From positions 4,784-68,783 of the forward strand of contig JAABRR010000010.1 of assembly GCA_011390785.1 (NCBI GenBank): a DNA stretch of 64,000 nucleotides. Reading direction: 5' to 3'. This stretch comes from Sphingobacteriia bacterium (GTDB lineage Bacteria; Bacteroidota; Bacteroidia; Bacteroidales; UBA7960). The position numbers and the translations under genes were made by a program. Below, piece by piece: positions 2,773 through 51,736 of this stretch (positions within the stretch are counted from its first letter, which is position 1; the number at the start of each line of letters is the position of its first letter). The notes under the pieces were generated by a model. The model searched no databases. It had not been told where the DNA came from and saw nothing but the letters and a program-made list of their open reading frames with translations.

Positions 2773-3414
2773 TTAATCAATGTCTTGTTTTACAAAGAAA
2801 GCTAGTTTTTCAAGAGAAGTGATAATATCGTATTCTTCAAGATGGATGTTTTCTGGCACAGTTAGGGGAACTGAAGTATAGTTTAGAATCCCTTTTATTC
2901 CGGCATCTATTATCATACGGGCTGCTTCCATAGTGCCCTGCGGCGCAACTGTAAGTATGGCTATTTGAATATTCATTTCTGGCGCAACTTCCTTAATCTT
3001 ATTGATATGATGACAGGGAATCCCGGCTATAATCCTTTTAATTTTTTGGGTATCATTATCAAAAGCGGCTACAATAGACAAACGCTCTCGTTTTCCGGAA
3101 AAGTAGCTTGTGATAGCCCTTCCAAGGTTACCCATTCCTACAACGGCAACATTTAATGGATTCTTACTATCGATAATGCTCCCAATAAGGGTAATGAGAT
3201 CTTTGATAATATAACCCTTGCTCTGGCTACCCGAATATCCTATCAACATTAAATCGCGCCGAACCTGAACAGATGTAAGATTCATCATTTTGGCCAGCTC
3301 GTGCGAATAGATGTTTGTTTTACCCTGATTTATGCTATTAAATAGTATCCGCCGATATTGGCTGAGCCTCTCAATTGTTTTGCCTGGTAAGTCGTTTAAC
3401 TTTTGAATTTCCAT
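2773..3414 (-). CDS. rex: Redox-sensing transcriptional repressor Rex (NADH/NAD+ sensor)
   Basis: 213 aa. N-terminal winged-helix segment (ERLSQYRRIL...LAKMMNLTSVQVRRDL) followed by the Rossmann motif VAVVGMGNLGRA. Length and layout are typical of Rex. Confidence 0.88.
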   Translation of the reverse strand: MEIQKLNDLPGKTIERLSQYRRILFNSINQGKTNIYSHELAKMMNLTSVQVRRDLMLIGYSGSQSKGYIIKDLITLIGSIIDSKNPLNVAVVGMGNLGRAITSYFSGKRERLSIVAAFDNDTQKIKRIIAGIPCHHINKIKEVAPEMNIQIAILTVAPQGTMEAARMIIDAGIKGILNYTSVPLTVPENIHLEEYDIITSLEKLAFFVKQDID

Positions 3415-3437: not shown

Positions 3438-4559
3438 TTACTGAGGAGGAAATTTAATGGTAAAAGTGCTTCCCTGATCAGGTTCACTATCTACCTGAAT
3501 TGATGCACCATAAAGATCAGAGATTTTTTTAACGATTGATAATCCTAAGCCTGTACCACTAATATTTTTGGTTTGTTCACTCTTAATTCTTACAAAATCT
3601 TCAAATAATTTTTCGATATCATTTTTTATCATTCCTATGCCGGTATCTGCAACACTGAGAATGGTATTATCATTTTCTTTTTTTACAGTAATATCTATTC
3701 TACCACCGTGCTTATTGTATTTTATAGCATTAGAAACCAGGTTATTAATTATAATATCTAATTCCTGCTTATCGGCCTTCATGGTTATAGTATCGTTGCA
3801 GTTGAGATGTATGTCAATGTCCTTTTGAATACACATTGGCTGCATTGAATCAATAGATTGCCTGGCATTTTCACAGAGGTTAATATTCTTGATGTTTCGA
3901 AGTTTTTTACCTGATTCAATTCTTGTAAAGTCAAGTAAATCAAGGATAAGATTTCTCATTTCCTGCATCCGCGTTAGAGATCTGTTGATCATTTCGGTAT
4001 AATCGCCAACATAATGCCCGTTTCGTTTTTCAAGCATAAGTTTCAAATATCCTTCTACCGCATTAATAGGAGACTTTAATTCGTGCGACAGCACTGAAAG
4101 GAATTGAAACCTGATCTGCTTGCCTTCCTGCTGCATTTTTTGGGTCATTCTTCTAAGAAAAAGTTGCTTGGCTATATTCTCAAGACAATTTCTTAGTTCT
4201 TTGGGAGTAAAAGGTTTTGGAACAAAGTCATAGGCTCCGCTCCTGGTAGCTTTTACAGCCATATCTAAAGATGCATAAGATGTTATCATTACTACTATAA
4301 CATCAATATTTTGTTTTTTGATGTATTCCAAAACTTCTATACCTTGAATTCCTGGTAATTTATTATCCAGCAGAGCAATATCAAACAAATAATTATCGAG
4401 TAATTCAATGGCTTCTTCCCCGCTTTCTGCTTCAAAAACTTCGAAGTCAAAATCTTCATCCATAAAGGGATAACTTACTGAAAAACTTTCCAGTATTCTC
4501 TTTATACCGCTTCTAATGCCCGGCTCATCGTCCACTACCAGCAGGTTGAGTTTTCCCAT
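3438..4559 (-). CDS. Hybrid response-regulator receiver / histidine kinase (REC-HisKA-HATPase)
   Basis: N-terminal REC (LLVVDDEPGIR...IALLDNKLPG...KPF). H-box LSVLSHELKSPINA. C-terminal ATPase G-boxes (DTGIGM, GTGLGLSIV). Confidence 0.85.
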   Translation of the reverse strand: MGKLNLLVVDDEPGIRSGIKRILESFSVSYPFMDEDFDFEVFEAESGEEAIELLDNYLFDIALLDNKLPGIQGIEVLEYIKKQNIDVIVVMITSYASLDMAVKATRSGAYDFVPKPFTPKELRNCLENIAKQLFLRRMTQKMQQEGKQIRFQFLSVLSHELKSPINAVEGYLKLMLEKRNGHYVGDYTEMINRSLTRMQEMRNLILDLLDFTRIESGKKLRNIKNINLCENARQSIDSMQPMCIQKDIDIHLNCNDTITMKADKQELDIIINNLVSNAIKYNKHGGRIDITVKKENDNTILSVADTGIGMIKNDIEKLFEDFVRIKSEQTKNISGTGLGLSIVKKISDLYGASIQVDSEPDQGSTFTIKFPPQ

Positions 4560-4561
4560 TC

Positions 4562-4960
4562 TTACAATTTCAGCAATTTATTTATTTCTTTATGCAGCTG
4601 ATCCATCCTTATGCCTTTATCCAGAAACATATCTGCCTTTATCCATTCCCGATTTTCTTCTGATTCTACATCAAAAAGCAGCCCTGTTTCTGCTGTTACA
4701 GCTGAGGCAATTATTATGGGAACATCTTTATATTTATTTTTAATGATATGACAAATTGTAAAACCTGTATCCTGATTTTCCATCATTAAATCCAAAATGG
4801 CAAGATCGGGTTTCAATTTACCAATAATATCTTCTGCCTCTTTTTGTGTTGTGGCCGTAATTACATCAAACCCCATATCCTGGATGGCAATACTCAGTTG
4901 AAAAAGATAATCAGGATCATCATCAACCAAAAGAATCTTTTTTTTATCAAGTTTAAGCAT
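4562..4960 (-). CDS. Stand-alone response-regulator receiver domain protein with no output domain
   Basis: 132 aa. KKILLVDDDPDYL...LAILDLMM matches the receiver acidic pocket and phospho-acceptor Asp context. There is no DNA-binding or enzymatic domain. Confidence 0.85.
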   Translation of the reverse strand: MLKLDKKKILLVDDDPDYLFQLSIAIQDMGFDVITATTQKEAEDIIGKLKPDLAILDLMMENQDTGFTICHIIKNKYKDVPIIIASAVTAETGLLFDVESEENREWIKADMFLDKGIRMDQLHKEINKLLKL

Positions 4961-4982: not shown

Positions 4983-7007
4983 TCAAGCGGTTTTTACAAA
5001 ATCTGAAACCCTGGGCAGAGAAACCAGGAAACTTGTTCCTGTTGGTCCTTTAGCTCTATCACTATTCGATTCCACTTTTATGTTTCCTTTGTGCATTTTT
5101 ACAATTCCGTAAATAATGGGCAACCCTAAACCTGTGCCTTTACCATCTTCTTTGGTGGTAAAGAACGGCTCAAACATACGTTCCATATTATCAGACGATA
5201 TACCTGTGCCCGAGTCTTTTATTGTAAATATTAGTTCGTTAGGATTATGAGTGTTATCATTTACTTTTAAAGCAAGCTTTCCTCCACCTGGCATAGCATC
5301 AATGGCATTTTTTATCAGGTTTGAAAACACCTGTACCATTTGATCATGATCACATTCCAAATTCGGATCAAGCGTATTAATTTCGATAGCAAGATCGATG
5401 TTTTGAGGAATAACCAACGCTTTCATACTATTTTTAATGAGCGTTCTAATATTAACCTCATTAAGGTCTACTTTGCTTTTTCGGGCAAAGTTAAGCAATC
5501 CACCCACAATTTTTTTGCATCGGTCTGCCTGATCAACAATTAGTTTGAGATCTTTGTAGTGAGGTGAGTCTGGTTCTATTTCATCCAGTAACAGGTGAGC
5601 ATACATAATAACAACACCCAGAGGATTATTTACCTCATGCGCAATACCTGCGGCCAGTTGTCCCATGGATGCCAGTTTTTCTGATTGTTTTAATGCAGCC
5701 TGAGTAGAAGCCAGTTTTTTATTAGAGATATCAAGATCTTTAATATACTTATGCAGCTTGTCAATAGTATAAGGTAAACACATTTCTGTTTCTGCTATTC
5801 CTTTTAAAATAGCAATTGCATGCTCATGGCAGCTTTCGTATCCGCAGGCTGTACAATTTAATTCATCATCCAGGTTGAAGATACCAAGTTTTTCTTTAAC
5901 CTTTTGAATATCTTCCTCGCTAAAATCAGAAGAAAATCTTTGATCGTCGGCAATAAAATATCTTGTAAGATCAAGGTTTTCAAATTTTTTTATTTCCTGA
6001 AACCATTTTTTTTGGTCTAAGCGGTCAAACTGACGCTTGGCAAAATTGCTGATATTTTTTCTTTTATAAAAAAACTGACTTCGGTTGCTCATTCCAGGTC
6101 CGTTTAAACACCCGTTACAACAAAGCAGATCAAAGAGTTTGGCACCCAGATAACCTTCTTCAAATTCTTTAAGTACTTCTGTAATATCATGCCTTCCTTC
6201 CGCCACAACAATTTCTCCGCTTATAAAGTCTTCCTCCAGATCAACAGTTTGAAGCATACCACCACTTATAGGAAATACTGAACCCTTACCGGCAAGGGGT
6301 GGATCAAATTCTGATGGTTGCACTTCATGCATCAAAATTTTCTTCTCATCAAACATACGTCTTAACTCAATAAAGGATATTACTTCATCTACAAGACCTT
6401 TAAACTGATTTTCTGCTGCTTCTGATTTTTTTGCAATACATGGACCAATAAAAACAATTTTTAAATCAGAGCCATGAATGGATTTTAGCACCTTTGCCGT
6501 GGCTATCATAGGAGAAACCACCTGTACCAAAGATTTTACAACTTGAGGGTGGTGCTTTTCAACATAAGTTACGATTGCCGGACAACTGGTACTGATATAG
6601 GGTTGTTTTTGCTCACTTTGAAGGAGTTTTTTATATCGATTGGCAACCAATTCAGCACCAAAAGCAACTTCATTTACAAAATGAAATCCCAGCGAACGAA
6701 TCATTCCAACCAGTCGCTGATAATCAGGTATATCAATAAATTCTGCCACAAGGCTTGGGGCAACAATCGCTGCAACTTTATCTGAGTTTTCAATTAACTT
6801 TCTTACCTTATCTATGGAAAAGGAAAACATTTTTGCCTGCCTGTTACAAACTTTTACACAATTGCCACAGGCAATACAACGCGAAGCAATTATTTCTGCC
6901 TGTCCATTTACAATTCTAATTGCTTTTGCCGGACACTCGCGTACACAGGTATAGCATACCTTACAACGATCTTTTACAGTATAAACCAGTTGGTTTTTGC
7001 TATCCAT
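4983..7007 (-). CDS. Sensory-type [FeFe]-hydrogenase-like protein fused to a histidine kinase (2x[4Fe-4S] domain, H-cluster domain, Cx2Cx4Cx16C motif, HisKA, HATPase)
   Basis: Ferredoxin motifs CKVCYTCVRECP and CIACGNCVKVC. H-domain motifs are altered relative to HydA: STSCPAIV, GPCIAKKSE, LLCCNGCLNGPG. Also present are CTACGYESC-x16-C, the H-box GIAHEVNNPL and ATPase motifs (DSGTGI, GTGLGL). Confidence 0.85.
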   Translation of the reverse strand: MDSKNQLVYTVKDRCKVCYTCVRECPAKAIRIVNGQAEIIASRCIACGNCVKVCNRQAKMFSFSIDKVRKLIENSDKVAAIVAPSLVAEFIDIPDYQRLVGMIRSLGFHFVNEVAFGAELVANRYKKLLQSEQKQPYISTSCPAIVTYVEKHHPQVVKSLVQVVSPMIATAKVLKSIHGSDLKIVFIGPCIAKKSEAAENQFKGLVDEVISFIELRRMFDEKKILMHEVQPSEFDPPLAGKGSVFPISGGMLQTVDLEEDFISGEIVVAEGRHDITEVLKEFEEGYLGAKLFDLLCCNGCLNGPGMSNRSQFFYKRKNISNFAKRQFDRLDQKKWFQEIKKFENLDLTRYFIADDQRFSSDFSEEDIQKVKEKLGIFNLDDELNCTACGYESCHEHAIAILKGIAETEMCLPYTIDKLHKYIKDLDISNKKLASTQAALKQSEKLASMGQLAAGIAHEVNNPLGVVIMYAHLLLDEIEPDSPHYKDLKLIVDQADRCKKIVGGLLNFARKSKVDLNEVNIRTLIKNSMKALVIPQNIDLAIEINTLDPNLECDHDQMVQVFSNLIKNAIDAMPGGGKLALKVNDNTHNPNELIFTIKDSGTGISSDNMERMFEPFFTTKEDGKGTGLGLPIIYGIVKMHKGNIKVESNSDRAKGPTGTSFLVSLPRVSDFVKTA

Positions 7008-7056: not shown

Positions 7057-8766
7057 TTATTTTAAAATGTTTCTTTCATGATAATGGGTGTAAAATTCAG
7101 GTGCATTTTCGGGTAAACCAGCCAACAGCGTATATTTTACCAGATCGCTATTCAATCCGGCAACACTGTTGGATATACTCTTCTGAAGATCCTGAGCCAT
7201 TTTCTTCCTGTTTTTCTGCTTATCAGCATAGATCACTATAGGTTGTCCACCACCACCAGCACAACCTCCACTGCAGGCCATTACTTCAACATAGTGTATA
7301 TCTGTTCTTGATTCTTCCTTCAGATGATTAAGATATTTCTGGAATTCCATTATGCCACTTACCCATGCAAAACCATATTCATGCTTACCTATTTTTATTT
7401 TTACTTCTTTGCGGCTACCTGGGTTTTTGGGGACTGTAAATTTAAACCCTTTGTTGTTTTGTCCATTGCTCATAAGATTGATCTGCTGAGCAATTGCTTC
7501 AGCTTTACCCCCAGAAAAAGACATTTGTAAACCTGCGTTAGAGTTATTGTCAAAAGGAGGTTCACATTTTTCCGGATCAATATGATTAATATTTAATCCA
7601 TAACTTCTTAGCATTCTAATGAATTCGCGCACAGTTATTACCGCATCGGTTTCAGAAATACCTCGTGATGTGTTTTCTTCTCGTGAACATTCAAATTTAT
7701 TGGCCACACAGGGCATAAAAGAAACAGTGTAAATATTTTCTCTATTAGCTCCTTCGTTAAATTCATACTTGATTAATCTACCCATTAGTTGCTGGGGCGA
7801 TTTTACACTTGATAAATCAGGTAAAGTGTCTGGTATAAATTTCTCAGCATATTCAACCCATGAAGGGCAACATGAAGAAAATAACGGGCCATGAATATTT
7901 TTTTCGACCCGTTCTTTCAGAAGCCTGGCTTCAAGAATAACATTGAGGTCGTTTGCCAGCGACATATCATATACTTTTGAAAACCCCATTTTTTTTAACG
8001 CGGCAGTAACAATTCCAATAGGGTTATCAGTTTGTTTTAAACCATAATACTCAGCTACAGAAGCAGCAAAACCAGCCGAAATCATAGCTATAGTTGTTTT
8101 TTTGCTGTTATTGATTGCAGATTGCACTTTTTCAATATGTGAAATATCTACCAATGCACCGGTGGGACAAACCATAATACACTGACCGCAATCTATACAG
8201 CTGGAAATGTTAAGACCTTTGTTAAAAGCTGAGTTTACCTTGGTTTTATTACCCTTTGAAATGAATTCCAGAGCGGTAACGAGTTGAATTTCTTCGCAAA
8301 CTCTTACACACCTGTTGCATAAAATACATTTTGCCGGATCGCGATAAACGCTGGAGCTCGAATGATCTCTCTGATCTGAGTTCTTTTTGCTGTAAAACCT
8401 TCTCTCTTTAACATGTAATTCTTCTGCCAGCCATTGCAATTCGCAATTACCATTTCGTTCGCAATACAAACAATCATCCGGGTGGTTTGCCAATAACATT
8501 TCAACTATGGCTTTGCGGGCTTTTATAACCCTGGACGAATTGGTTTTTACGACCATTCCCGGTTCTGCCGGATACGTGCAGGAAGTTACCAGATCGCGTT
8601 TACCTTCAACCTCCACCACGCATAAGCGGCAAGCTCCGGAAGGTGCAAAGTCTTTCATGTGGCACAACGTAGGAATCTTAATCCCTTTACCGCGCATTAT
8701 TGTGAGGAGGGTTTCACCTTCCTGAACATCTATGGGAGCATTATTTACATTGATAGTAAAACTCAT
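7057..8766 (-). CDS. hydA: Catalytic [FeFe] hydrogenase large subunit HydA (2Fe-2S, His-ligated 4Fe-4S, 2x 4Fe-4S and H-cluster; electron-bifurcating HydABC type)
   Basis: All three canonical H-cluster motifs are present: FSSCCPSWVEY, FMPCVANKFE and EVMACSGGCAGGGGQP. N-terminal plant-type 2Fe-2S and NuoG-like HPDDCLYCERNGNCELQ. Two CxxCxxCxxxCP-type motifs. Confidence 0.92.
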   Translation of the reverse strand: MSFTINVNNAPIDVQEGETLLTIMRGKGIKIPTLCHMKDFAPSGACRLCVVEVEGKRDLVTSCTYPAEPGMVVKTNSSRVIKARKAIVEMLLANHPDDCLYCERNGNCELQWLAEELHVKERRFYSKKNSDQRDHSSSSVYRDPAKCILCNRCVRVCEEIQLVTALEFISKGNKTKVNSAFNKGLNISSCIDCGQCIMVCPTGALVDISHIEKVQSAINNSKKTTIAMISAGFAASVAEYYGLKQTDNPIGIVTAALKKMGFSKVYDMSLANDLNVILEARLLKERVEKNIHGPLFSSCCPSWVEYAEKFIPDTLPDLSSVKSPQQLMGRLIKYEFNEGANRENIYTVSFMPCVANKFECSREENTSRGISETDAVITVREFIRMLRSYGLNINHIDPEKCEPPFDNNSNAGLQMSFSGGKAEAIAQQINLMSNGQNNKGFKFTVPKNPGSRKEVKIKIGKHEYGFAWVSGIMEFQKYLNHLKEESRTDIHYVEVMACSGGCAGGGGQPIVIYADKQKNRKKMAQDLQKSISNSVAGLNSDLVKYTLLAGLPENAPEFYTHYHERNILK

Positions 8767-8777
8767 AATATTTTGTT

Positions 8778-10733
8778 TTAATCTACAACAACTGCATTAA
8801 ATTTACAGGCTTCAAAACAGGCATTGCAGGCAATACATTTTTCTTGTACAATAAAGTGGGGCTGCCTTGGCGAACCAATAATTGCATCTACCGGGCATTT
8901 TTTAAAACATGCTGTACAACCGGTACACATATCAACATCAATGCTGTATGTGCGCAATTCACGGCAAACACCTGCAGGGCATTTTCTTTCAAATACGTGA
9001 GCATCAAATTCTGTTTTAAAATTAGAAAGGGTATTTAGGATAGCATTAGGAGCAGATTTACCAAGCGAACAAAGACTTGTATCTTTCATAACTTCGGCCA
9101 AACTCTTTAATTGCATAATTCCTTTAAAGCGTTCCAAAGTTTGAAGGGTGTTTTCCTTAGATGGTTTGCGTGTTGTCGCTTCAATAATTTCAAGCATCAA
9201 AGCAGTTCCTTCACGACATGGTATGCATTTTCCACAACTTTCATTTTTGAAGAAATTGGTGAAAAACTTTGCCAGATCGAGCATACATGTATCTTGTGCA
9301 ACAACTACGCACGCTCCGCTGCCCAGCTGAGACCCTACTGATCTGAGATCATTAAAATCAACCCGGGTATCGAGAGATTTCTCAGTTATATAGCTTCCGC
9401 TGTTAATACCCAGAATAATTGCCTTAAATGGATATTCCCCTTTTATTCCACCCCCAATTTCATCAATTATTTTCCTGAAACTCATTCCCATTTCCACTTC
9501 AATACACCCAAAATTCTTTACTTTGCCACTGAGGGTAAAAAGCTTTGTTCCTTTGCTCGATTCATAACCCAGGCTTTTAAACCATTCTATACCATTTTTG
9601 AGAATAAGTGGAACATTGATTATGGTTTCAAGATTATTAACGCTTGTTGGTTTATTCCATAACCCTTTAACTGCCGGAAAAGGTGGTTTTGATACAGGCA
9701 TAGCTCTTTTACCTTCAATACTGTTTATCAGGGCAGTTTCTTCTCCACAAACAAAGGCACGTGCACCAGCCATTACAATTATATCAATGTTAACCCCCGA
9801 ATCAAAAATATTATGACCTGTTAATCCATAATCTTGCGCTTGCTTAATGGCCCCATTAAGTCTTTCTATAGCCAACGAGAATTCTCCCCTAGTAAAAATA
9901 TAAGCTTTGGAAGCTCCAACTGCATAGGCAGAAATCAGAATTGCTTCAATTAGCCTGTGTGGGTCACTTTCCATTATCACCCTGTTCATGTAACTCCCCG
10001 GATCGCTTTCAACTGCATTGCAAATAAAATATTTCTGATCGCTGCTGGTATTCAGAGATATTTTCCATTTTTTACCAGCAAGAAAAGCTCCTCCGCCCCT
10101 TCCCATTAGCTCACTCTGCTCTACAATGTCGCAAACGTCAGCAGGAGTATGGCCTGCAATGGTATCGGCAAAAGCCTGATATCCTCCGGTGGCAATATAC
10201 TGCGAAATCGAAAGAGGGTCATTGATTCCGCAATTGGATGTCAGTATCTTTTTTTGATGAGAAAAAAAAGGGAGCTCATGAATGTAAGGAACGCCATCCC
10301 AAAACTGGTGTAAATTATTGTAATATTGTCCTAGAAGAAACTTCTCAGGAATGCTGTTATTGAGAATTTCATCAAGAAATGCCGGAACATCATCATGATA
10401 AACGTTTTGAAAAGAAATACGTGCCTTTCCAGGCATCTGTATATCCACAACAGGTTCAGCCTTACAATACCCGTTGCAGCCGCCTTTAATTAGTTCAACA
10501 TCAATTTCATTATCATTTATATAGTGCTTAATAGCCAGATAGGTTTTGGTTGCACCTGCTGCAATTGAACAACTGGTAAGTCCTACATAAATAACAGTTT
10601 TGGAAATACGCTCGCCAGAAATAAAAGAAAGTTCACGGGTAAGATCACTATCTTGATTTCTTTGGAAGTTTCGTAATACTTTTTCCGTTAAAAACTGTTT
10701 TATCTGATCCGAATCATCACTTTTCATATTCAT
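8778..10733 (-). CDS. hydB: HydB, the NuoF-like NADH-binding flavoprotein subunit of the hydrogenase
   Basis: GRGGGAFLAGKKW (FMN/NADH site) and ESCGKCIPCREG (N3-type 4Fe-4S). C-terminal CTGCTACFKKCP and CIACNACFEAC. N-terminal thioredoxin-like 2Fe-2S domain. Overlaps hydC by 17 nt. Confidence 0.9.
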   Translation of the reverse strand: MNMKSDDSDQIKQFLTEKVLRNFQRNQDSDLTRELSFISGERISKTVIYVGLTSCSIAAGATKTYLAIKHYINDNEIDVELIKGGCNGYCKAEPVVDIQMPGKARISFQNVYHDDVPAFLDEILNNSIPEKFLLGQYYNNLHQFWDGVPYIHELPFFSHQKKILTSNCGINDPLSISQYIATGGYQAFADTIAGHTPADVCDIVEQSELMGRGGGAFLAGKKWKISLNTSSDQKYFICNAVESDPGSYMNRVIMESDPHRLIEAILISAYAVGASKAYIFTRGEFSLAIERLNGAIKQAQDYGLTGHNIFDSGVNIDIIVMAGARAFVCGEETALINSIEGKRAMPVSKPPFPAVKGLWNKPTSVNNLETIINVPLILKNGIEWFKSLGYESSKGTKLFTLSGKVKNFGCIEVEMGMSFRKIIDEIGGGIKGEYPFKAIILGINSGSYITEKSLDTRVDFNDLRSVGSQLGSGACVVVAQDTCMLDLAKFFTNFFKNESCGKCIPCREGTALMLEIIEATTRKPSKENTLQTLERFKGIMQLKSLAEVMKDTSLCSLGKSAPNAILNTLSNFKTEFDAHVFERKCPAGVCRELRTYSIDVDMCTGCTACFKKCPVDAIIGSPRQPHFIVQEKCIACNACFEACKFNAVVVD

Positions 10734-11196
10734 TATTCTGGGTTTCCCTTATATGGCTAATAATATTTTTGACCGACTCTATTGTAAGAGCCGTATAATA
10801 CTCTTTGTTAATTTCTAATAAGGGAGCCAAACCACAGGCACCAATGCACGAAACTACTTCAAGGCTAAAAAGGCCAAAGCGATCTGTTTCGCCATTTTTA
10901 ATTTTTAGGGATTTCTCTAATTCGGCTAAAATAGTAGATGCTCCCGCAACATGGCAAGCTGTTCCATGACAAAGCCTTATATGATATCTACCAATAGGCC
11001 CGAAGTGGAAATTATCGTAAAAAGTAGCTACGCCATAAATCTTGTTAACAGAAATATGTAAATAACTACCCACCTCAATAATAATTTCTTCTGACAAAAA
11101 TCCAAACTCTTCCTGAATTTGATGCAACATGGGAATTAAATCATCTCTTTGTTGGTTAGGGAAATGGTCAAAAATATTTGAGAGTCGTTTATCCAT
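10717..11196 (-). CDS. hydC: HydC, the NuoE-like [2Fe-2S] subunit of the hydrogenase
   Basis: 159 aa. LCHGTACHVAG ... VSCIGACGLAPL (Cx4C...Cx3C thioredoxin-like 2Fe-2S motif). Confidence 0.9.
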   Translation of the reverse strand: MDKRLSNIFDHFPNQQRDDLIPMLHQIQEEFGFLSEEIIIEVGSYLHISVNKIYGVATFYDNFHFGPIGRYHIRLCHGTACHVAGASTILAELEKSLKIKNGETDRFGLFSLEVVSCIGACGLAPLLEINKEYYTALTIESVKNIISHIRETQNNEYEK

Positions 11197-11404
11197 GGGT
11201 TAGGTTGATAATTTTTTAACAATATTGAGGAAAGAAAAATTTACATTCCCAAAGTTTTCTTACTATCAGCTATTTAATGGATAAAAAATAACTGACATAA
11301 GGCACAAATATAAGAAAAAAATGATCTCTTAAAGGCTAATTTATTGAATAACAAAATCAAATTGAGCTTAATGTTATTTAGATTAATTTTAAAGAAGGCA
11401 AAAG

Positions 11405-11422
11405 CTGTGAACATATTAGCAA
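11405..11422. promoter_or_regulatory. Candidate Rex operator (imperfect TGTGAA-N4-TTCACA palindrome)
   Basis: cTGTGAAcataTTAGCAa matches 10 of 12 core positions of the Rex box known from Firmicutes and Actinobacteria. It lies in the divergent hydrogenase/sensor intergenic region. Confidence 0.25.
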
Positions 11423-11525: not shown

Positions 11526-11786
11526 ATGACCAATATAATCAGCAACATAACAATTTGCATGGGAAGCAGTTGTTTTTCAAGGGGCAATAAAAAGACTGTT
11601 GCTTTTATCCAAAAATACCTTAAGGACAAGCAACTCAATGATAATGTAACTCTTAAAGGCGCTCACTGTATGGATCAATGCGATAAAGGACCTCTGGTAA
11701 AAATTGATGAAGAGTTGATTTTTCATGCAAATGAACAAATTCTTGAAGCCTATCTCGATAAAAAATTCAACATAAAAACCAAATAA
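11526..11786 (+). CDS. Small thioredoxin-like [2Fe-2S] ferredoxin (HfsA/NuoE-like)
   Basis: 86 aa. ICMGSSCFSRG ... GAHCMDQCDKGPLV gives Cx4C...Cx3C. It sits immediately upstream of the PAS-type sensory hydrogenase. Confidence 0.78.
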   Translation: MTNIISNITICMGSSCFSRGNKKTVAFIQKYLKDKQLNDNVTLKGAHCMDQCDKGPLVKIDEELIFHANEQILEAYLDKKFNIKTK

Positions 11787-11850
11787 GACATGCACCAAGG
11801 CATTAACAAAATTAAATGCCTCCATCAGCATTAACATAGCAACCCATATT

Positions 11851-13707
11851 ATGGAGTTAATATCAATAGACCTCGAAAAATGTAATAGTTCTCATGCGTG
11901 TATTCGTGCCTGCCCTGTAAAAGCTATTACAGTTGAAAGAAAGACCGATCTGCCAGAAATAAATCATAACAGGTGTATTGGTTGCGGCAATTGCCTGAGC
12001 GTATGCCAGGTTGGAGCAGTAACTTACAAATCATCTATAGAAGAAACAATAGATTTAATAAAATCAGAACAAAAAATAGCAGCAATTGTAGACCCCAGTA
12101 TAAGCGGAGAATTTTCAGATATTACTGAGTACAGAAAATTTGTAGAAATGATCAGAATGCTGGGTTTTGATTATGTAAACGAAGTTTCTTTTGGGGTTGA
12201 CCTGGTAGCACTGCAATATAAAAATCTAATTGATAAATTTAAGGGTAAATATTACCTTACATCTAACTGTCCCAGTGTTGTCAGTTATGTTGAAAAATAC
12301 TATCCTGATATAATTAATAACCTAATTCCAATAGTAAATCCAATGACTGCTATGGCTAAGGTTGTTAGACGTCAGTTTGGAAAGAATCTGAAAGTGGTTT
12401 TCATTGGCCCCTGTATTTCTGCTAAATATGAAGCCACACGGCATGTAGGAGATGGAAAAGTAGATTCTGCCCTAACTTTTCAGGAATTAAGGATCATGTT
12501 CAATAAATCACAAATAAAAGAAACCAATGTTGAATTTTCTGATTTTGACCCTCCTATCGGTTATAAGGGTTCTCTTTACCCTTTAAGCAGGGGTATTCTG
12601 GCAGCGGGTGGACTAACGGAAAATCCATTGGTGTCAGATATTTTTACTGCAACCGGCACTGAAAATGTAATGGACGCGGTGCACGAGTTCAGCTTTCGTC
12701 CAGAATCTATTAAAAAGCACTTCAACCTGCTTTTTAATGAAGGATGCCTTATGGGTCCGGGAAACAGTACCAGTAGTAATAAGTTCTTAAGGAAGACCCT
12801 GGTAATTGATTATGCAAGAAAACGATTGGAAAATTTTGATGAAAAAGTATGGAAGGAAAGCATTGAAAATTTTTCTGATTTAGATCTTTCAAGAACATTT
12901 ATTAACGACGACCAACGCAAAGAAATGCCTTCTGAAGACAAAATAGAGGAAATTCTGAAATCAGTTGGTAAATCTTCTGATGAAAAGGGGGCCTGTAGTG
13001 CCTGTGGATTTAGATCTTGCCGCGATTTTGCCATTGCCGTAAGTCAGGGTTTATCAAAATCTGACACATGCCTTACATGGTCGTTGAAAAGTAAGCAGGA
13101 ATACATAAAAACGCTTAAGAATAATAACGATAAGCTTCGCAAGCAGCAACAGGAAAGAGAAGAAAACGAAAGGCTACTCAAAATAGAAAATCAAAAGATA
13201 AGAACCAAATCCGAAACCATCTCTTCTTTGCTTCAAAACTTACCTTCTGCTGCAGTTATTATTGATGAAAAGCTTAAAGTAATAGAGTCTAACAAATCAT
13301 TTATCAATATATTGGGTGATGATGCTACTTTAATTAATGATGTTATACCTGGTTTAATCGGAGCTGATTTAAAAACACTACTGCCATACAATGTTTATAA
13401 TCTTTTTAGTTATGTTTTGCAAAAGGATGAGAATATTATTGGCCGCGATGTAAGTTTTAATGACGGGCTGCTCAACATAAATGTATTTTCTCTAAAACCT
13501 AACAAAATTGTAGGAGCTGTTTTCAGAGATATGTACGTTGCCGAAGTTAGGCAGGAAGAGATAATTAACAGGGTTAGTGAAGTAATTGACGAAAATCTGA
13601 AAATGGTGCAACAAATTGCCTTTTCACTGGGCGAAGGAGCATCAACAACAGAAAAAATGCTCAACTCAATAATTGAAACCTATAAAAAGGTTAAGAAAAC
13701 CGAATAA
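11851..13707 (+). CDS. hydS: Sensory-type [FeFe]-hydrogenase-like protein with a C-terminal PAS domain (HydS/HfsB-like)
   Basis: N-terminal ferredoxin motifs CNSSHACIRACP (second Cys replaced by Ser) and CIGCGNCLSVC. H-domain motifs TSNCPSVV, GPCISAKYE and LLFNEGCLMGPG. CSACGFRSC-x16-C, then a coiled-coil linker and a PAS-like C-terminus. Confidence 0.85.
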   Translation: MELISIDLEKCNSSHACIRACPVKAITVERKTDLPEINHNRCIGCGNCLSVCQVGAVTYKSSIEETIDLIKSEQKIAAIVDPSISGEFSDITEYRKFVEMIRMLGFDYVNEVSFGVDLVALQYKNLIDKFKGKYYLTSNCPSVVSYVEKYYPDIINNLIPIVNPMTAMAKVVRRQFGKNLKVVFIGPCISAKYEATRHVGDGKVDSALTFQELRIMFNKSQIKETNVEFSDFDPPIGYKGSLYPLSRGILAAGGLTENPLVSDIFTATGTENVMDAVHEFSFRPESIKKHFNLLFNEGCLMGPGNSTSSNKFLRKTLVIDYARKRLENFDEKVWKESIENFSDLDLSRTFINDDQRKEMPSEDKIEEILKSVGKSSDEKGACSACGFRSCRDFAIAVSQGLSKSDTCLTWSLKSKQEYIKTLKNNNDKLRKQQQEREENERLLKIENQKIRTKSETISSLLQNLPSAAVIIDEKLKVIESNKSFINILGDDATLINDVIPGLIGADLKTLLPYNVYNLFSYVLQKDENIIGRDVSFNDGLLNINVFSLKPNKIVGAVFRDMYVAEVRQEEIINRVSEVIDENLKMVQQIAFSLGEGASTTEKMLNSIIETYKKVKKTE

Positions 13708-13736
13708 AAACATTCAATACCAATATTGCTAAACCT

Positions 13737-14921
13737 ATGCAAAATCCCTTTTATATAGAAGTAGGTGTATTTCAAAAAAGCCATATTGGTGAACGTATAT
13801 GTGGTGATGTTTTCTTATCTAAAAAAGTAAAGGAAGAAAATCGTACTATTGTTGTTTTATCAGATGGTATGGGTCATGGAGTAAAAGCCAACCTGCTGGC
13901 AACACTAACCGCCACTATGGCTTTAAATTTTACCGTAGAACATAAGGATGTACATAAAATTGCAGAAATAATTATGAATACGCTGCCTGTTTGCAGTGAA
14001 AGGAAAATAAGTTATTCCACCTTTACCATTATAGATATAGAAGATAACGGCCAAACCACTATAATTAATTACGATAATCCCGAGTGTCTTGTTATTCGTG
14101 AGCAGGATGTATTTAAACCCAAATGGCACACAATAACCCTGGAGGCAGGTATTTATGGTGAAAAGGAAATTATGGCATGTACCTTTCAGGCCCAAAAAGA
14201 AGACCGGTTGATTATGCTTACCGATGGAATAACTCAATCCGGATTGGGCAAAGGAACTTACCTACTTGGATATGGCTGGGATAATACCAGAGATTTGATT
14301 GTTCAAAAAATAAAGGAAAAGGAAGATATCTCCGCTTCCAAACTTGCTTCTATAATTGTTGGAAAAGCGCACGCTAACGATAATTATCAATCTAAAGATG
14401 ATATAAGCTCTGTAGTAGTTTATCTTCGCGAACCACGTAAATTATTATTATGCTCTGGACCTCCTTTCGACAAAGATAAAGATGATTATTTAGCTAAAAA
14501 AGTTCACCAATTTTCAGGTAAAAAAATTCTATCTGGTGGCACTACAGTCGATATTATCGCTAAAAAGCTAAATATTAGAGTTGAAGATACCCTGGAATTT
14601 AATGATCCTGACCTACCTCCTATATCCTATATGCAGGGAATTGACCTGGTTACCGAAGGAATTCTTACACTAAGTAAGGTAACTAATATACTTGAAAATT
14701 ATAATGAAAGAACAGAACTCTCCAATGGGCCTGCAGATCAGATTATTAAACTGCTGCTCGAAAGCGATGAAATTGTTCTTTGCATTGGAACAGCTATAAA
14801 CGTTGCCCATCAGGATCCGAACCTACCTGTTGAACTGGAAATTCGACGTAGCGTTGCCAAAAAACTCACTGCCCTGTTAGAAGAAAAATTTCTTAAGGAA
14901 GTTACTCTGCAGTTTATTTAA
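13737..14921 (+). CDS. SpoIIE/PP2C-family serine phosphatase with an uncharacterised C-terminal domain of about 160 aa
   Basis: ICGDVF...VVLSDGMGHGVKANLLA...LIMLTDGI matches SpoIIE/PP2C metal-binding motifs. I do not recognise residues from about 235 to 394. Confidence 0.78.
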   Translation: MQNPFYIEVGVFQKSHIGERICGDVFLSKKVKEENRTIVVLSDGMGHGVKANLLATLTATMALNFTVEHKDVHKIAEIIMNTLPVCSERKISYSTFTIIDIEDNGQTTIINYDNPECLVIREQDVFKPKWHTITLEAGIYGEKEIMACTFQAQKEDRLIMLTDGITQSGLGKGTYLLGYGWDNTRDLIVQKIKEKEDISASKLASIIVGKAHANDNYQSKDDISSVVVYLREPRKLLLCSGPPFDKDKDDYLAKKVHQFSGKKILSGGTTVDIIAKKLNIRVEDTLEFNDPDLPPISYMQGIDLVTEGILTLSKVTNILENYNERTELSNGPADQIIKLLLESDEIVLCIGTAINVAHQDPNLPVELEIRRSVAKKLTALLEEKFLKEVTLQFI

Positions 14922-15402: not shown

Positions 15403-17784
15403 GTGAAAAGGTTCCAATCAATACCTATATTAATCTTTTCTCTTGCATTGATTATACTTACTAACCCCATGGTTCAGGCAGGTAATGACTCAGGCCTCCT
15501 AAATTCATTACATAGTATAAACAACAAGACAATCGACAATAATCCGACATTATCAGGTCAGATAGGTTTTTTGTCTTTTTTTTCGAAGTATGAAATTTAC
15601 AAAAAGACAATTTCAGTCAATAAAATTGGTTTTTCGCTTTTTTCTCTTTCCGAAAGAAAATTATTTTCAGTTCCTTTATTAATAGAAATTGAAAAGATAA
15701 ATAATTTTATTTTCCACAATTTATTTTTTCATCTCTTTTTGTTGTTTGTAAGTTTGATAATTCTTTCATACCTGGTATTTACTTCTTTAAAGTTTCGCAG
15801 AAAGTCGCAAAAACATGAAAACCAATTACAGATATTACTAGAATCGAATCCTACGGCTATAATGATCTTCCAGAATTACAGGCTGAAATTTGTAAACTAT
15901 TCTATGGTTGATCTAACAGGATTTACAAAAGATGAGCTGATAAAAATAGAAATATGGGAGTTGATTCATCCAAATAACATTAAGCAAAATGAAAATGAAC
16001 AAATTAAAGTTGAAAAGGGAACTTTAAATATCCGGGGAGAATTTCAGATCATAACCAAGTCAGGCGAATTAAAATGGATAGACCTTTCTACAAGCCCAAT
16101 TGTTTACGACCGTCAATCTGCAGTATTGGCTACGGCAATTGATATTACCGAACGTAAAAAAATAGAAGCAGAGCTTATACTCGCAAAAGAAATTGCCAAC
16201 GAAGCCAACAAGGTTAAATCTAATTTTATATCTAATGTAAGCCACGAAATAAGAACACCGCTAAACTCAATAATTGGCCTTACCGATCTTATAATAGATG
16301 ATGAAAATCTTACCAGAAAACAAATGGATAATATGAAGTCCATTAAATACTCATCCGATCATCTTCTGGGTGTTATTAATGATGTACTTGATTTTTCAAA
16401 ACTGGAAGCCGGTAAAGTTGAACTTGAGAATACCGAATTTGACCTTTTTACCCTGGTATTAGAAACTATCAAAACCTTTGAGTTTAAAGCAAAGGAAAAG
16501 AACATTATTATTAATAGTGATATAGATACCACAATACCACCTGTTATTAAAGGTGATCCATCAAGACTAAGACAGGTATTTCTTAATTTAATCAGTAATG
16601 CAGTTAAATTTACATCAGAAGGTCATATTGATATCCAGGTAAAAACTTTAAAACTAAACACGGAAAAAACAGAATTAAGATTTTCGGTTTCTGACACCGG
16701 AATTGGAATCCCGGAAGACAGGCAAAAACAATTATTCCAGAATTTTACACAAGTAAGCAGCGATACATTCAGAAAATATGGAGGAACAGGTCTGGGACTA
16801 TCCATTTGTAAAAAAATTATTGAATTGCAAAATGGCAAAATAGGGTTAAAAAGTATCAAAGGAATGGGCTCTACTTTCTGGTTTACTCTTGGTTTTGGTG
16901 TAAGCGATCGTTCATTTATACCTGATATGAGTAAGGTTGGACAAAGAATCAGAGACCTTAAGGGGACAAAGATTCTATTGGTAGAAGACGATCAAATGAA
17001 TCAGTTTGTAATGAAACAAATCATTGGTAAATGGCAGGCAATTATAGAAATAGCACATAATGGCCTGGAAGCCATCACCAAATTAGAAACAACTGATTAT
17101 GATGTAGTTTTAATGGACCTTCATATGCCTGAACTAAATGGCTATGAGACAGCCAAAATAATAAGACAAAATAAGGGGACGGTAATAAATAATAAAATAC
17201 CTATTCTGGCGCTCACTGCTGATGTAGCGAGTGAAACAAGGCAAAAAGTTAATGAAGCAGGTATGAACGATTTCATTACCAAACCATCGGAGCAGAAAAT
17301 TATTTACGAGAAAATTGTAACAGCAATCAGTAATTCAAAAACTGAGTTTGTAGAGAAAAAAGCAGAACAGACTACAACGACCCAAACAGAAAGTTCTGAG
17401 AGCATCAGAAAATCAAAATTAAGAGTCAGGAAGTCGTTAGAAGATATTTTTGATGATAATCTGGAAGAAACCTTATCCTTAATTTCAAGATTTTTAAAAG
17501 AGATTCCCCGCACAATACTGGGAATAAATGAAGCTCTTTTTGAGCAGGATCTTGATACAGTAAATAAGCTGGTTCATAGAATAAAACCGGGTTATAGCTA
17601 CATGGGTTTTGGTGAAGTATCAGATAAAATTTCACAAATTCAGGAGCTAACCAGATCAAAATCTAACCTACCACAACTTGAAGTTTTGTGTAAAGAACTA
17701 GATGATGATTCCAGAAATATCATATCAATTCTGAGAGCCCTACATAAAGAATTTCTTAAAGATGGCTTCCTAAACAACAAATAA
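15403..17784 (+). CDS. Hybrid sensor histidine kinase (signal/TM region, PAS, HisKA, HATPase, REC, HPt)
   Basis: 793 aa with a GTG start. H-box VSHEIRTPLNSI, ATPase motifs DTGIGI and GTGLGLSIC, receiver ILLVEDDQMNQ...VLMDLHMPELNG...KP, and a C-terminal HPt-like helical region. Confidence 0.85.
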   Translation: MKRFQSIPILIFSLALIILTNPMVQAGNDSGLLNSLHSINNKTIDNNPTLSGQIGFLSFFSKYEIYKKTISVNKIGFSLFSLSERKLFSVPLLIEIEKINNFIFHNLFFHLFLLFVSLIILSYLVFTSLKFRRKSQKHENQLQILLESNPTAIMIFQNYRLKFVNYSMVDLTGFTKDELIKIEIWELIHPNNIKQNENEQIKVEKGTLNIRGEFQIITKSGELKWIDLSTSPIVYDRQSAVLATAIDITERKKIEAELILAKEIANEANKVKSNFISNVSHEIRTPLNSIIGLTDLIIDDENLTRKQMDNMKSIKYSSDHLLGVINDVLDFSKLEAGKVELENTEFDLFTLVLETIKTFEFKAKEKNIIINSDIDTTIPPVIKGDPSRLRQVFLNLISNAVKFTSEGHIDIQVKTLKLNTEKTELRFSVSDTGIGIPEDRQKQLFQNFTQVSSDTFRKYGGTGLGLSICKKIIELQNGKIGLKSIKGMGSTFWFTLGFGVSDRSFIPDMSKVGQRIRDLKGTKILLVEDDQMNQFVMKQIIGKWQAIIEIAHNGLEAITKLETTDYDVVLMDLHMPELNGYETAKIIRQNKGTVINNKIPILALTADVASETRQKVNEAGMNDFITKPSEQKIIYEKIVTAISNSKTEFVEKKAEQTTTTQTESSESIRKSKLRVRKSLEDIFDDNLEETLSLISRFLKEIPRTILGINEALFEQDLDTVNKLVHRIKPGYSYMGFGEVSDKISQIQELTRSKSNLPQLEVLCKELDDDSRNIISILRALHKEFLKDGFLNNK

Positions 17785-22595: not shown

Positions 22596-24038
22596 ATGGA
22601 TAATACGCACGATTTAGTTTGGTCAAAATGTTTAAATGTTATTAAGGATAATATTCCTCAAAATAGTTTTAATACATGGTTCGCGCCCATTAAGCCCATT
22701 AAAATTGTTAATAATGTATTGACCATTCAGGTGCCCAGTCAATTTTTTTATGAATGGCTTGAAGAACATTATATTGAATTGCTGAGAAAAACAATAAAAA
22801 AAGAGTTGGGTGCAGATGGCAGGCTGGAATACAGCATAGTAATGGATAGTGCCTATAATCATAATAAACCTTTTACCATCAATGCTCCAACATTAAACAG
22901 AAAAGCATTGAAAAATCCACCGGTAACTATGCCTTTAGATTTAAATAAAGAAAGTGGTAAAACAGTTCCCAATCCATTTATTATACCTGGATTGAAAAAA
23001 CTTGATATTCATCCACAGCTAATCGAATCTTACAATTTTGAAAATTTTGTTCAGGGTGATTGTAACAGATTAGCCAGAAGTGCAGGTATTGCAGTGGGGC
23101 AGAATCCTGGAAAAACTTCTTTTAATCCTTTGCTGCTTTATAGTGCAAACGGATTAGGAAAAACCCACCTTGCCCATGCAATTGGCATTGAAGTAAAAAA
23201 TAATTTTCCTGACAAAACGGTTCTTTATGTTTCATGTGAACAGTTTACCAATCAGTTTATTGATGCTGTAAAGAATTCAAACCAGAATGATTTTATTCAT
23301 TTCTATCAAATGATAGATGTTTTAATTGTTGATGATATTCATTCTCTGGCCAATAAGCCTAAAACCCAGGATGTATTTTTTCATATCTTTAACCAGTTGC
23401 ATCAAAACGGTAAACAGATTATTATTACATCAGACCAACCACCCGTTGAAATGAAAGGAATAGAACACCGCTTGCTCTCGCGTTTCAAATGGGGATTATC
23501 TGCCGATCTTCAGGTGCCTGATCTGGAAACTCGTGTGGCTATTCTGAAGAAAAAAATGTACAACGATGGGGTGCAAATGCCCCAAATTGTTATTGAACTT
23601 ATAGCCAATACTATTGATACCAATATTCGTGAAATGGAAGGAGCAATGATATCAATACTGGCGCAGTCTTCAATGAATAAAAAAGAAATAAATATTGATC
23701 TCGCTAACTCCGTTCTTCAAAAATTTGTTAAAAGTACTCCCCGAGAAATCACTATTGAACACATCCAAAAAACTGTTGGAGAGTATTTCAGTATTCCAAT
23801 TGATAAAATTAATTCCAGTACCAGAAAACGAGAAATAGTTCAGGCAAGACAATTAGCTATGTTTTTTTCAAAAGCTTACACAAAACATTCCCTTGCTTCA
23901 ATTGGTACTAAATTAGGGAAAAAAGACCATGCTACAGTTCTTCATGCCTGTAAAACAGTAAAAAATCTTTGCGATACAGACAGAGATTTCAAAAAGCATT
24001 TTGATGAGATTGAAAATATGCTTAAAATTAAACTATAA
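22596..24038 (+). CDS. dnaA: Chromosomal replication initiator protein DnaA
   Basis: Walker A GANGLGKTHL, AAA+ core, and a C-terminal DNA-binding domain (RQLAMFFSK...HATVLHAC). Confidence 0.95.
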   Translation: MDNTHDLVWSKCLNVIKDNIPQNSFNTWFAPIKPIKIVNNVLTIQVPSQFFYEWLEEHYIELLRKTIKKELGADGRLEYSIVMDSAYNHNKPFTINAPTLNRKALKNPPVTMPLDLNKESGKTVPNPFIIPGLKKLDIHPQLIESYNFENFVQGDCNRLARSAGIAVGQNPGKTSFNPLLLYSANGLGKTHLAHAIGIEVKNNFPDKTVLYVSCEQFTNQFIDAVKNSNQNDFIHFYQMIDVLIVDDIHSLANKPKTQDVFFHIFNQLHQNGKQIIITSDQPPVEMKGIEHRLLSRFKWGLSADLQVPDLETRVAILKKKMYNDGVQMPQIVIELIANTIDTNIREMEGAMISILAQSSMNKKEINIDLANSVLQKFVKSTPREITIEHIQKTVGEYFSIPIDKINSSTRKREIVQARQLAMFFSKAYTKHSLASIGTKLGKKDHATVLHACKTVKNLCDTDRDFKKHFDEIENMLKIKL

Positions 24039-50914: not shown

Positions 50915-51736
50915 ATGAACCGTGTATTACTCTTTTCTCTATTTTCCTTTTTTTTGACTTCTTCCTTTTTAAAGGCATCTAATGATAATTACCCATTTGG
51001 CGGAAGAGCGGCTGGTATGTCAAATGCATCAGTTACCTTATATGATTTTTGGGCAGTAAGCCATAACCAGGCAGGATTAGCAAAGATGGAAAATGCCGCT
51101 GCCGGAGTATATTTTGAAAATAGGTTCTTAATTGAAGAGCTTAATTTTGGAGCAGGGGCATTTATCTACCCCACCAAATTAGGCGTTTTAGGTTTTAACT
51201 TTACTTACTTTGGCTTTGAATTGTATAACGAAACCAAGATTGGTATTGCTTATGCCCGCAATTTTGGAGAAAGATTTTCCCTTGGTATGCAGCTTAATTA
51301 TCACAATACTGGTATAGGAGAAAATTATGGCAATAGAGGAAATATTACAGCTGAGCTTGGAGCTATATTTCATATTCTGCCACAGCTAAGTATTGGTGCT
51401 CATCTTTATAACCCTGCACGAGCCAAAATCGGAAATTTTGCTGATGAACGAATTCCCACCATTTTTAAAACAGGCCTGGGTTATGAGTTTTCTGAAAGAG
51501 TTCTGGTTGTTTTGGAAGCAGAGCAAAGCATCAATCATAAACCCGTTTTTAAAGCTGGAATTGAATATCACATCATAGACCCAATATTTATAAGAGGGGG
51601 AATTGGTACAAATCCCAATAGCAATTCTTTCGGTTTTGGCTTGCTAATGGGAAATCTTGAAGTTGACCTTGCAACATCATATCATTATTTATTGGGTTAT
51701 TCGCCCCAGATAAGCATGATTTATAACTTTAAATAA
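50915..51736 (+). CDS. Outer-membrane beta-barrel protein (PorV/PorQ-like, tentative)
   Basis: Signal peptide, alternating amphipathic beta-strand pattern, aromatic-rich C-terminus (SMIYNFK). Family call is tentative. Confidence 0.55.
   Translation: MNRVLLFSLFSFFLTSSFLKASNDNYPFGGRAAGMSNASVTLYDFWAVSHNQAGLAKMENAAAGVYFENRFLIEELNFGAGAFIYPTKLGVLGFNFTYFGFELYNETKIGIAYARNFGERFSLGMQLNYHNTGIGENYGNRGNITAELGAIFHILPQLSIGAHLYNPARAKIGNFADERIPTIFKTGLGYEFSERVLVVLEAEQSINHKPVFKAGIEYHIIDPIFIRGGIGTNPNSNSFGFGLLMGNLEVDLATSYHYLLGYSPQISMIYNFK

Follow-up and report, generated by a model that had tools for sequence, protein, structure and literature searches.

A putative H2-responsive histidine kinase encoded beside a bifurcating [FeFe] hydrogenase in a Bacteroidales genome

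The stretch of DNA considered here (the window) comprises 64,000 nucleotides, positions 4,784 to 68,783 of contig JAABRR010000010.1 (assembly GCA_011390785.1), from a Sphingobacteriia bacterium of the Bacteroidales. At 4983-7007 on the minus strand it carries a gene for a 674-residue protein, HydS-HK, in which a domain related to the catalytic domain of [FeFe] hydrogenases is joined to a histidine kinase. This sensor kinase is probably an H2-responsive histidine kinase that controls a bifurcating hydrogenase; its sequence suggests a cytoplasmic H-cluster sensor of group C, with a HisKA kinase in cis. Kinase-fused [FeFe] sensors are not new. They are known, widespread and already catalogued, and the present example adds no new architecture. 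More unusual at this locus is a neighbouring paralogue of the sensor, in which a ligand of the H-cluster has been replaced.

Domain organization of the sensor kinase

The open reading frame is intact and uninterrupted from its ATG start, and all of the features described in this section lie on the minus strand. The N terminus is formed by a ferredoxin-like dicluster domain (residues 9-58; 6834-6983; Pfam Fer4_10/Fer4_9) containing two CxxCxxCxxxCP motifs (C15, C18, C21, C25 and C44, C47, C50, C54), which are nearly invariant among orthologues. The hydrogenase H-domain, Fe_hyd_lg_C, follows at residues 77-304 (6096-6779; Pfam E = 6e-50). Beyond this lies a C-terminal accessory cluster motif of the form Cx2Cx4Cx16C (CTACGYESCHEHAIAILKGIAETEMC; C385, C388, C393 and C410; 5778-5855), where Pfam reports an FeS match (PF04060, residues 383-412). 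The same full-length architecture is found in the best 120 clusters at 90% identity, the orthologues being 54-90% identical to the sensor kinase, and the Cx2Cx4Cx16C motif is kept in every one of the 120.

A helical linker of 46 residues (411-456; 5640-5777) leads from the last cluster cysteine to the H-box of the kinase. The HisKA/DHp domain (residues 448-510; 5478-5666; E = 1.5e-13) contains the H-box GIAHEVNNPL (5619-5648) with the phospho-acceptor H457 (codon 5637-5639), and the HATPase_c domain occupies residues 553-666 (5010-5351; E = 5.8e-24). Both domains score above their Pfam cutoffs. The kinase boxes are complete, comprising N (N563/N567), G1 (D598-G602), F (F612) and G2 (G622-G628), and these boxes are invariant among orthologues, as is H457.

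No PAS domain was detected by Pfam in the whole sensor kinase, nor in residues 308-447 searched alone at E<=10, where PF04060 was the only match. The kinase occupies the place where the PAS domain sits in group C sensors, with some 260 residues of kinase after the cluster motif. The initial annotation of this DNA had described an H-domain fused directly to a HisKA/HATPase kinase with no PAS domain intervening, and the order of the Pfam domains agrees with that description. The motifs that it listed (STSCP, GPCIAKKSE, LLCCNGC, Cx2Cx4Cx16C and GIAHEVNNPL) each translate exactly as given. NCBIfam holds no model for HydS-type sensors, and all of its matches to the sensor kinase fall far below their cutoffs.

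Active-site residues and their conservation

The sensor kinase was aligned by HMMER with Thermotoga maritima HydA and with CpI, and by MAFFT with the window's own canonical HydA. The three alignments agree on the following equivalences to CpI: S141 = C299, C142 = C300, G188 = M353, C190 = C355, L295 = M497 and C300 = C503. Three motifs contain these residues: P1, STSCP (6579-6593), with S141 and C142; P2, GPCIAKKSE (6420-6446), with G188, C190, K193 (K358 in CpI) and E196 (E361); and P3, LLCCNGC (6108-6128), with L295, C296, C297 and C300. The group C version of P3 is one residue shorter than that of group A, CxGC as opposed to CxGGC, so that C297 and not C296 is the equivalent of C499. C296, the first cysteine of the 'CC' doublet, stands at the position of A498 in CpI.

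Of 57 Bacteroidales-type orthologues, 56 share this extra cysteine (codon 6120-6122). Most of the other lineages with a fused kinase have Phe in its place, and the 'CC' doublet is characteristic of Bacteroidales.

The four H-cluster ligands C142, C190, C297 and C300 are invariant in 57 close orthologues and are kept across diverse fused representatives as well. The same 57 sequences show no variation in the residues of the [2Fe] pocket, A83, P84, S85, K193, E196, S165, P166 and F245, for which the CpI counterparts are A230/P231/S232, K358, E361, P324 and F417. G188 is likewise invariant in orthologues. The proton pathway of group A is replaced beyond the relay cysteine, the alignment with CpI giving E279->R124, E282->K127, R286->S131 and S319->V161, and these positions vary among the 57 orthologues. 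Thus, neither the pathway of prototypical group A enzymes (C299-E279-S319-E282-R286) nor their framing methionines M353 and M497 are found in the sensor kinase.

These results bear out the earlier claim that all four H-cluster cysteines are retained and the proton-relay cysteine is lost: none of the three alignments places a cysteine at the relay position, where each has S141, and the one refinement is the assignment of C297 as the equivalent of C499. It had also been suggested that Ser at this position is a different solution from the Ala of the Thermotoga sensor. That proposal is not supported, since the relay position varies within the family and Ser is no specific solution. Position 141 is Ser in 42, Asp in 11, Cys in 3 and Asn in 1 of the 57 close orthologues, and Pro, Thr, Ala, Ser, His or Asn among 45 diverse fused representatives. 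Non-conservation of the relay in sensory sequences has moreover been published, with Cys in only 17%, Ala in ~43%, Pro in ~10% and Ser in ~10% (PMC10055695). In CpI, the C299S variant has <1% activity, whilst C299D keeps 30-80% (PMC6226526).

Linker register and predicted structure

The distance from the last cluster cysteine to the phospho-acceptor histidine is 46 residues in all 120 orthologues, and the Ignavibacteria linker is exactly 7 residues shorter. Among 33 fused representatives chosen by motif pattern (a stricter selection than the count of 68 by hidden Markov model given below), 26 have a linker of 32, 39, 46, 53 or 67 residues, that is, in steps of 7. The hydrophobic periodicity of the linker peaks at 3.5 residues. 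Together, the fixed length of 46, the steps of 7 and the 3.5-residue period point to a register-keeping helix, and residues 411-456 are a probable coiled-coil signalling helix. This speaks for mechanical coupling between the hydrogenase-like part of the protein and its kinase. Differences in linker length by multiples of seven were noted across lineages, two of the genome loci discussed below (L003 and L004) being among those concerned.

An AlphaFold2 model of the full-length monomer has a mean predicted local distance difference test score (pLDDT) of 72.9, with values of 86-96 for the H-domain and 85-91 for HATPase_c. DSSP assigns helices to residues 411-431, 437-447 and 449-476, at low pLDDT. 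Searched with Foldseek, the first ~430 residues gave bifurcating HydA and CpI as best matches (E 1e-15 to 1e-18), and the last ~235 residues matched the kinase core of ZraS, whose cytoplasmic domain is the best solved relative of the kinase part. No group C or group D sensor structure was found among the PDB structures searched.

Gene neighbourhood

Ten closely packed genes lie on the same strand, with the sensor kinase gene in fourth place; their order is hydC-hydB-hydA, sensor kinase, REC, REC-HisKA-HATPase, rex, ribF, MBL-fold and hydG. The first three, hydC (NuoE-like; 10717-11196, minus strand), hydB (NuoF-like; 8778-10733, minus) and hydA (7057-8766, minus), were assigned by Pfam and NCBIfam, and the HydA sequence has the canonical motifs SSCCP, MPCVANKFE and MACSGGC. 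Together, hydCBA (7057-11196) encodes a trimeric bifurcating-type hydrogenase of group A. The sensor kinase gene begins 49 bp downstream of hydA. It is followed after 22 bp by a gene for a stand-alone receiver of 132 residues (REC; 4562-4960, minus; Pfam Response_reg) and then by one for a 373-residue REC-HisKA-HATPase_c protein (3438-4559, minus; Pfam), a kinase gated by a receiver domain. The next gene, at 2773-3414 (minus), encodes the redox-sensing repressor Rex (NCBIfam NF003995, 198 bits; cutoff 126).

The cluster ends with hydG (1-777, minus), its last same-strand gene, of which the window edge leaves the N-terminal 259 residues, including the radical-SAM motif CTNNCQYC. The best NCBIfam match of this fragment is TIGR03955 HydG, and for the full-length orthologue in the related contig L081 the score is 496.6 bits (cutoff 312). 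Neither HydE nor HydF was detected within the 64-kb window.

Metagenomic contigs of Bacteroidales, with sensors 55% and 71% identical to the present one, show the entire layout again, and hydG ends the cluster in related contigs likewise. A genome scan by kinase motif patterns returned 80 loci, 75 of them ordinary kinases, and only L001-L005 were informative. The core hydC-hydB-hydA-sensor-REC-REC/kinase is present in all five full-length genome matches, including one from Ignavibacteria at 41% identity. The stand-alone REC beside the sensor is kept in both Bacteroidales and Ignavibacteria loci, the REC-kinase keeps its place in contigs L081-L084 and in each of the five full-length genome loci, and rex is kept in the cluster of related loci.

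Further along the window, dnaA lies at 22596-24038 (plus strand), ~8 kb from the hydrogenase cluster, and the locus is therefore probably close to the chromosomal replication origin. Two adjacent open reading frames, 50915-51736 (plus, 273 residues) and 51748-53892 (plus, 714 residues), have no Pfam match at E<=1e-6.

Rex-like boxes in the divergent promoter

The intergenic region of 329 bp upstream of hydC separates the hydrogenase operon from a divergently oriented gene group. A Rex-like operator, TTGATAATTTTTTAACAA, lies here at 11205-11222 (no strand assigned), 9 bp upstream of the hydC start. It has one mismatch to TTGTKAAN4TTMACAA and is the window's best match to this pattern. A second, weaker box is found in the same region at 11405-11422 (strand not given), and thus two of the seven matches in the window fall within the divergent intergenic region. 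Similar boxes occur at the same place in L081 (5798-5815) and L083 (5800-5817). The Rex operator with a 6-nucleotide spacer, TTGTGAAN6TTCACAA, is not enriched (7 matches, 8.8 expected). An alignment of the divergent intergenic region with its counterparts in L081 and L083, together with a search for inverted repeats, yielded nothing convincing beyond the Rex-like box. The position of the boxes suggests that the Rex protein encoded in the cluster may repress the hydrogenase operon.

A second, divergent sensor paralogue

The divergent module (11526-14921, plus strand) has an arrangement that is conserved in related contigs. Its first gene (11526-11786) encodes a small [2Fe-2S] protein of 86 residues whose similarity is confined to the C-terminal half of the NuoE-type thioredoxin-like [2Fe-2S] ferredoxins; in related contigs, counterparts of 82-85 residues are encoded immediately before the PAS-type sensor. 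Next comes a HydS paralogue of 618 residues with a weak PAS-like C-terminus (11851-13707; Pfam), followed by a SpoIIE/PP2C phosphatase (13737-14921; Pfam).

After the phosphatase gene, a hybrid kinase of 793 residues (PAS, HisKA, HATPase_c, REC) is encoded at 15403-17784 (plus), and it may belong to the pathway of the second sensor. A 921-residue protein with similar domains adjoins the phosphatase in L083 and L084, but not in L081 and L082.

The P3 motif of the paralogue reads LLFNEGC, placing an Asn (N296) at the position of CpI C499, and its relay residue is also Asn (TSNCP). Conservation was counted in the 120 nearest clusters of the paralogue (90% identity), 115 of which could be scored for both positions. 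The C499 position holds Asp in 43, Asn in 36, His in 36, Ser in 4 and Cys in 1, so that the ligand is replaced, chiefly by Asp, Asn or His, in all but one of the 115 relatives scored. The other three ligands are invariant and there is no compensating conserved cysteine. In 97 of the 120, the first ferredoxin motif contains three cysteines only. In PAS-type relatives at greater distance (40-54% identity), the C499-equivalent cysteine is retained. The paralogue family represents either a variant of the H-cluster held by three cysteines or a domain in decay.

It is conceivable, if doubtful, that the bifurcating hydrogenase is under three-input control, in which the kinase-fused receptor with four cysteine ligands, the PAS/PP2C-linked receptor with three and Rex would all act. 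Were this so, two H2 thresholds could feed a His-Asp relay and a Ser/Thr-phosphatase pathway, converging with Rex, and the three-cysteine site with its Asp, Asn or His would represent a new natural way of ligating the H-cluster as opposed to a dead domain.

Proposed mechanism and alternative explanations

The initial annotation had presented the protein as a one-polypeptide transducer from H2 to phosphorylation. This stands as the most reasonable reading, given the domains, the ligands and pocket, the kinase motifs, the neighbouring receivers and a cluster running from hydCBA to hydG, while H-cluster binding and H2-dependent phosphorylation are the parts of it that we infer. HydG from the same cluster, with HydE and HydF encoded elsewhere, would install the [2Fe] subcluster on the [4Fe-4S]H site ligated by four cysteines, as the invariant ligands and pocket lead one to expect. 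H2 would then bind and be split slowly. With the proton pathway absent (S141, R124, K127, S131, V161) and M353 and M497 replaced by Gly and Leu, the site is expected to equilibrate with H2 rather than turn over, by analogy with CpI C299S and with the sensors TmHydS (PMC10055695) and TamHydS (PMC8163306), which bind a normal H-cluster, work slowly and can be reduced by H2.

A redox or conformational change arising in this way may be passed to the C-terminal [4Fe-4S] domain and on through a rigid coiled coil, kept in heptad register as the observed quantisation of linker length suggests, to the DHp helices. The equivalent C-terminal motif of TamHydS does bind a [4Fe-4S] cluster (PMC13104023). 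Autophosphorylation of H457 would be switched as a consequence, either on or off; in the [NiFe] system HoxBC-HoxJ, H2 turns phosphorylation off (PMC5707799). The conserved gene order suggests that phosphate would pass to the adjacent stand-alone REC, to the receiver of the next kinase, or to both, and that the REC-kinase may relay it to a regulator outside the window. This output, Rex at the hydC promoter and the second, PAS/PP2C-linked sensor could together set the expression of HydABC.

Several points weigh against this scheme. H-cluster binding, the response to H2 and the phosphotransfer partners all come from reading the sequence, and the literature, it appears, contains no experimental study of a kinase-fused member. 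No DNA-binding response regulator was found within the 64-kb window. As Asp or Cys occupies the relay position in 11 and 3, respectively, of 57 orthologues, slow proton transfer is not constant across the family. H2 at 1 atm leaves the C-terminal [4Fe-4S] cluster of TamHydS unreduced (PMC13104023), and the redox state of this cluster may therefore not be the signal that is transmitted. Finally, pLDDT drops to 36-42 over residues 421-458, which makes the junction between FeS domain, linker and DHp unreliable in the model and contacts between the cluster and DHp unreadable.

It is possible, though unlikely, that the sensor kinase reports redox poise or electron flux instead of H2, either as a 'T' subunit docked on HydABC or by exchanging electrons with ferredoxin, with the H-cluster serving only as an equilibrating electron sink or source. 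The complex would then reduce the FeS chain of the sensor kinase, and the state of this chain would set the activity of the kinase. The gene directly follows hydA in every case, and such proteins have been treated as a BfuT subunit of BfuABC (PMC11406978). The pair of N-terminal [4Fe-4S] clusters, of a kind usual in electron-transfer modules, is kept, and in TamHydS it is the N-terminal cluster that changes redox state (PMC13104023). However, physical association with HydABC is without support. The solved complexes 8a6t and 7p8n, both matches in the fold search, were deposited as HydABC. To our knowledge, no HydS-type subunit is known in either, which also counts against docking. The conserved [2Fe] pocket, moreover, points to selection on H2 chemistry itself, and Rex, in the same cluster, already covers the sensing of NADH/NAD+.

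It is a good deal less probable that the H-domain lacks the [2Fe] subcluster altogether and acts as an Fe-S sensor of O2, NO or iron status, like NreB or FNR-type proteins, with the kinase shutting off an O2-labile hydrogenase. Loss of the relay cysteine and of both framing methionines would fit such a role, motifs P1-P3 are hardly found in some group C1 proteins (PMC11406978), and the neighbouring paralogue, having lost a ligand of the [4Fe-4S]H cluster, shows that degeneration does happen in this gene family. Against it, the four ligands and the residues contacting CN and CO (K193, S85, P84, E196 and F245) are invariant, hydG is co-located, and TmHydS and TamHydS bind a normal H-cluster despite similar substitutions (PMC10055695, PMC8163306).

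Least probable of all, and very improbable in itself, is a working hydrogenase of low rate with an unrelated kinase add-on, present for control of its own activity or as a fusion inherited without a signal: TmHydS does keep measurable activity despite its relay Ala (PMC10055695), and some orthologues have Cys or Asp at the relay, the latter giving 30-80% activity in CpI (PMC6226526), but the invariant, heptad-quantised linker and the conserved downstream REC genes point to mechanical coupling and a phosphorelay, and the group A proton pathway is entirely missing.

An H2-responsive kinase, if this preferred reading is right, would bear on a standing question of the field, the signal output of sensory [FeFe] hydrogenases. 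A 2022 review calls their sensory role putative and never mentions kinases (PMC8924675). A kinase in cis gives a built-in readout, namely autophosphorylation of H457 with and without H2; two candidate acceptor domains are encoded adjacent to it, and the register of the linker is open to manipulation. These properties make the family, rather than this single gene, a practical route to H2 signalling. The organisms in question belong to the Bacteroidota, anaerobic fermenters that are common and release H2.

Distribution and relation to known systems

Counts of the fusion are lower bounds. In addition to the at least 120 clusters at 90% identity, whose named members are metagenome-assembled genomes of Bacteroidales, Bacteroidota or Lentimicrobium, at least 68 of the best 150 representatives at 50% identity, taken from an exhaustive search, combine the C-terminal FeS motif, the mark of the hydrogenase-like part, with a kinase core. 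In ~55 of these 68 the two are directly linked, and in ~13 they are separated by an insert of 136-398 residues. A quick neighbour-joining tree of H-domains, crude in that it includes fragments and relies on regular-expression labels, gave 17 parsimony changes for the fusion.

Such proteins have been catalogued before. HydDB lists 'C1 histidine kinase-linked (putative)' within group C (PMC5037454). In 2024, group C sensors with kinase domains were described as 'BfuT' in sub-type V BfuABC, encoded downstream of bfuA, in Hydrogenedentota and Calditrichota, and three Bacteroidota genomes, of Perlabentimonas, Tenuifilum and Williamwhitmania, were reported to carry bfuT twice, downstream of bfuA and again upstream of bfuC (PMC11406978). 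Cultured carriers named there are Perlabentimonas gracilis, Tenuifilum thalassicum and Williamwhitmania taraxaci. The layout in the window is this two-bfuT layout. BfuT (HydDB reference WP_006928132.1) is the same kinase-fused sensor directly downstream of the catalytic gene of a bifurcating hydrogenase, and no structural difference from the sensor kinase was detected in a comparison by description. The 2024 study is purely genomic and leaves aside the relay and ligand residues, the linker, the REC partners and the Rex boxes. It places kinase-domain sensors in C3 and some of those bearing HATPase_c in C1, and a Petrimonas sensor has been called C1 (PMC7768429).

Judged by its sequence, the sensor kinase qualifies as a group C sensory [FeFe] hydrogenase (HydS, M2f), except that the PAS domain is replaced by a kinase. 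It has the two [4Fe-4S] clusters, the Cx2Cx4Cx16C motif, a small residue at M353, a variable relay and a position beside a bifurcating (group A3) hydrogenase; the C-terminal PAS domain of the group is absent. T. maritima HydS shares with it the two [4Fe-4S] clusters, the four cysteine ligands, loss of the relay cysteine, the M353->Gly substitution, the Cx2Cx4Cx16C motif and a HydABC-type partner (PMC10055695, PMC8163306). However, TmHydS ends in a PAS domain without a kinase, and has A131 at the relay and S267 at the M497 equivalent, where the sensor kinase has Ser and Leu. The HydS of Thermoanaerobacter mathranii (TamHydS; group D, M2e) resembles it in lacking PAS, in its C-terminal [4Fe-4S] motif, in M497->Leu and in adjoining a bifurcating hydrogenase (PMC8163306). 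It ends with the cluster domain, and its residue at M353 is Ser, whereas the sensor kinase has an invariant Gly and continues into the kinase. Membership of group D was rejected for the sensor kinase, which has Gly and not Ser or Thr at M353 and carries the kinase tail.

The same logic is found in the [NiFe] systems HoxBC-HoxJ of Ralstonia eutropha and HupUV-HupT, in which a slow hydrogenase acts as the H2 receptor, signalling through a histidine kinase to hydrogenase expression (PMC5707799, PMC5665086). Their metal site and fold are unrelated, and the receptor is a protein apart from the kinase, which bears a PAS domain, so that these are analogues and not homologues. The kinase core, in turn, is that of the ZraS/AtoS/NtrB-like HisKA kinases with an HExxNPL H-box. 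Residues 436-661 match ZraS (E = 5e-33; Foldseek TM score for the kinase core 0.78, normalised to the target), and the AtoS and ZraS models of NCBIfam also match, with scores far below their equivalog cutoffs. The sensor kinase has no transmembrane or periplasmic sensing region, and the partners encoded next to it are a bare REC and a REC-kinase and not an NtrC-type activator.

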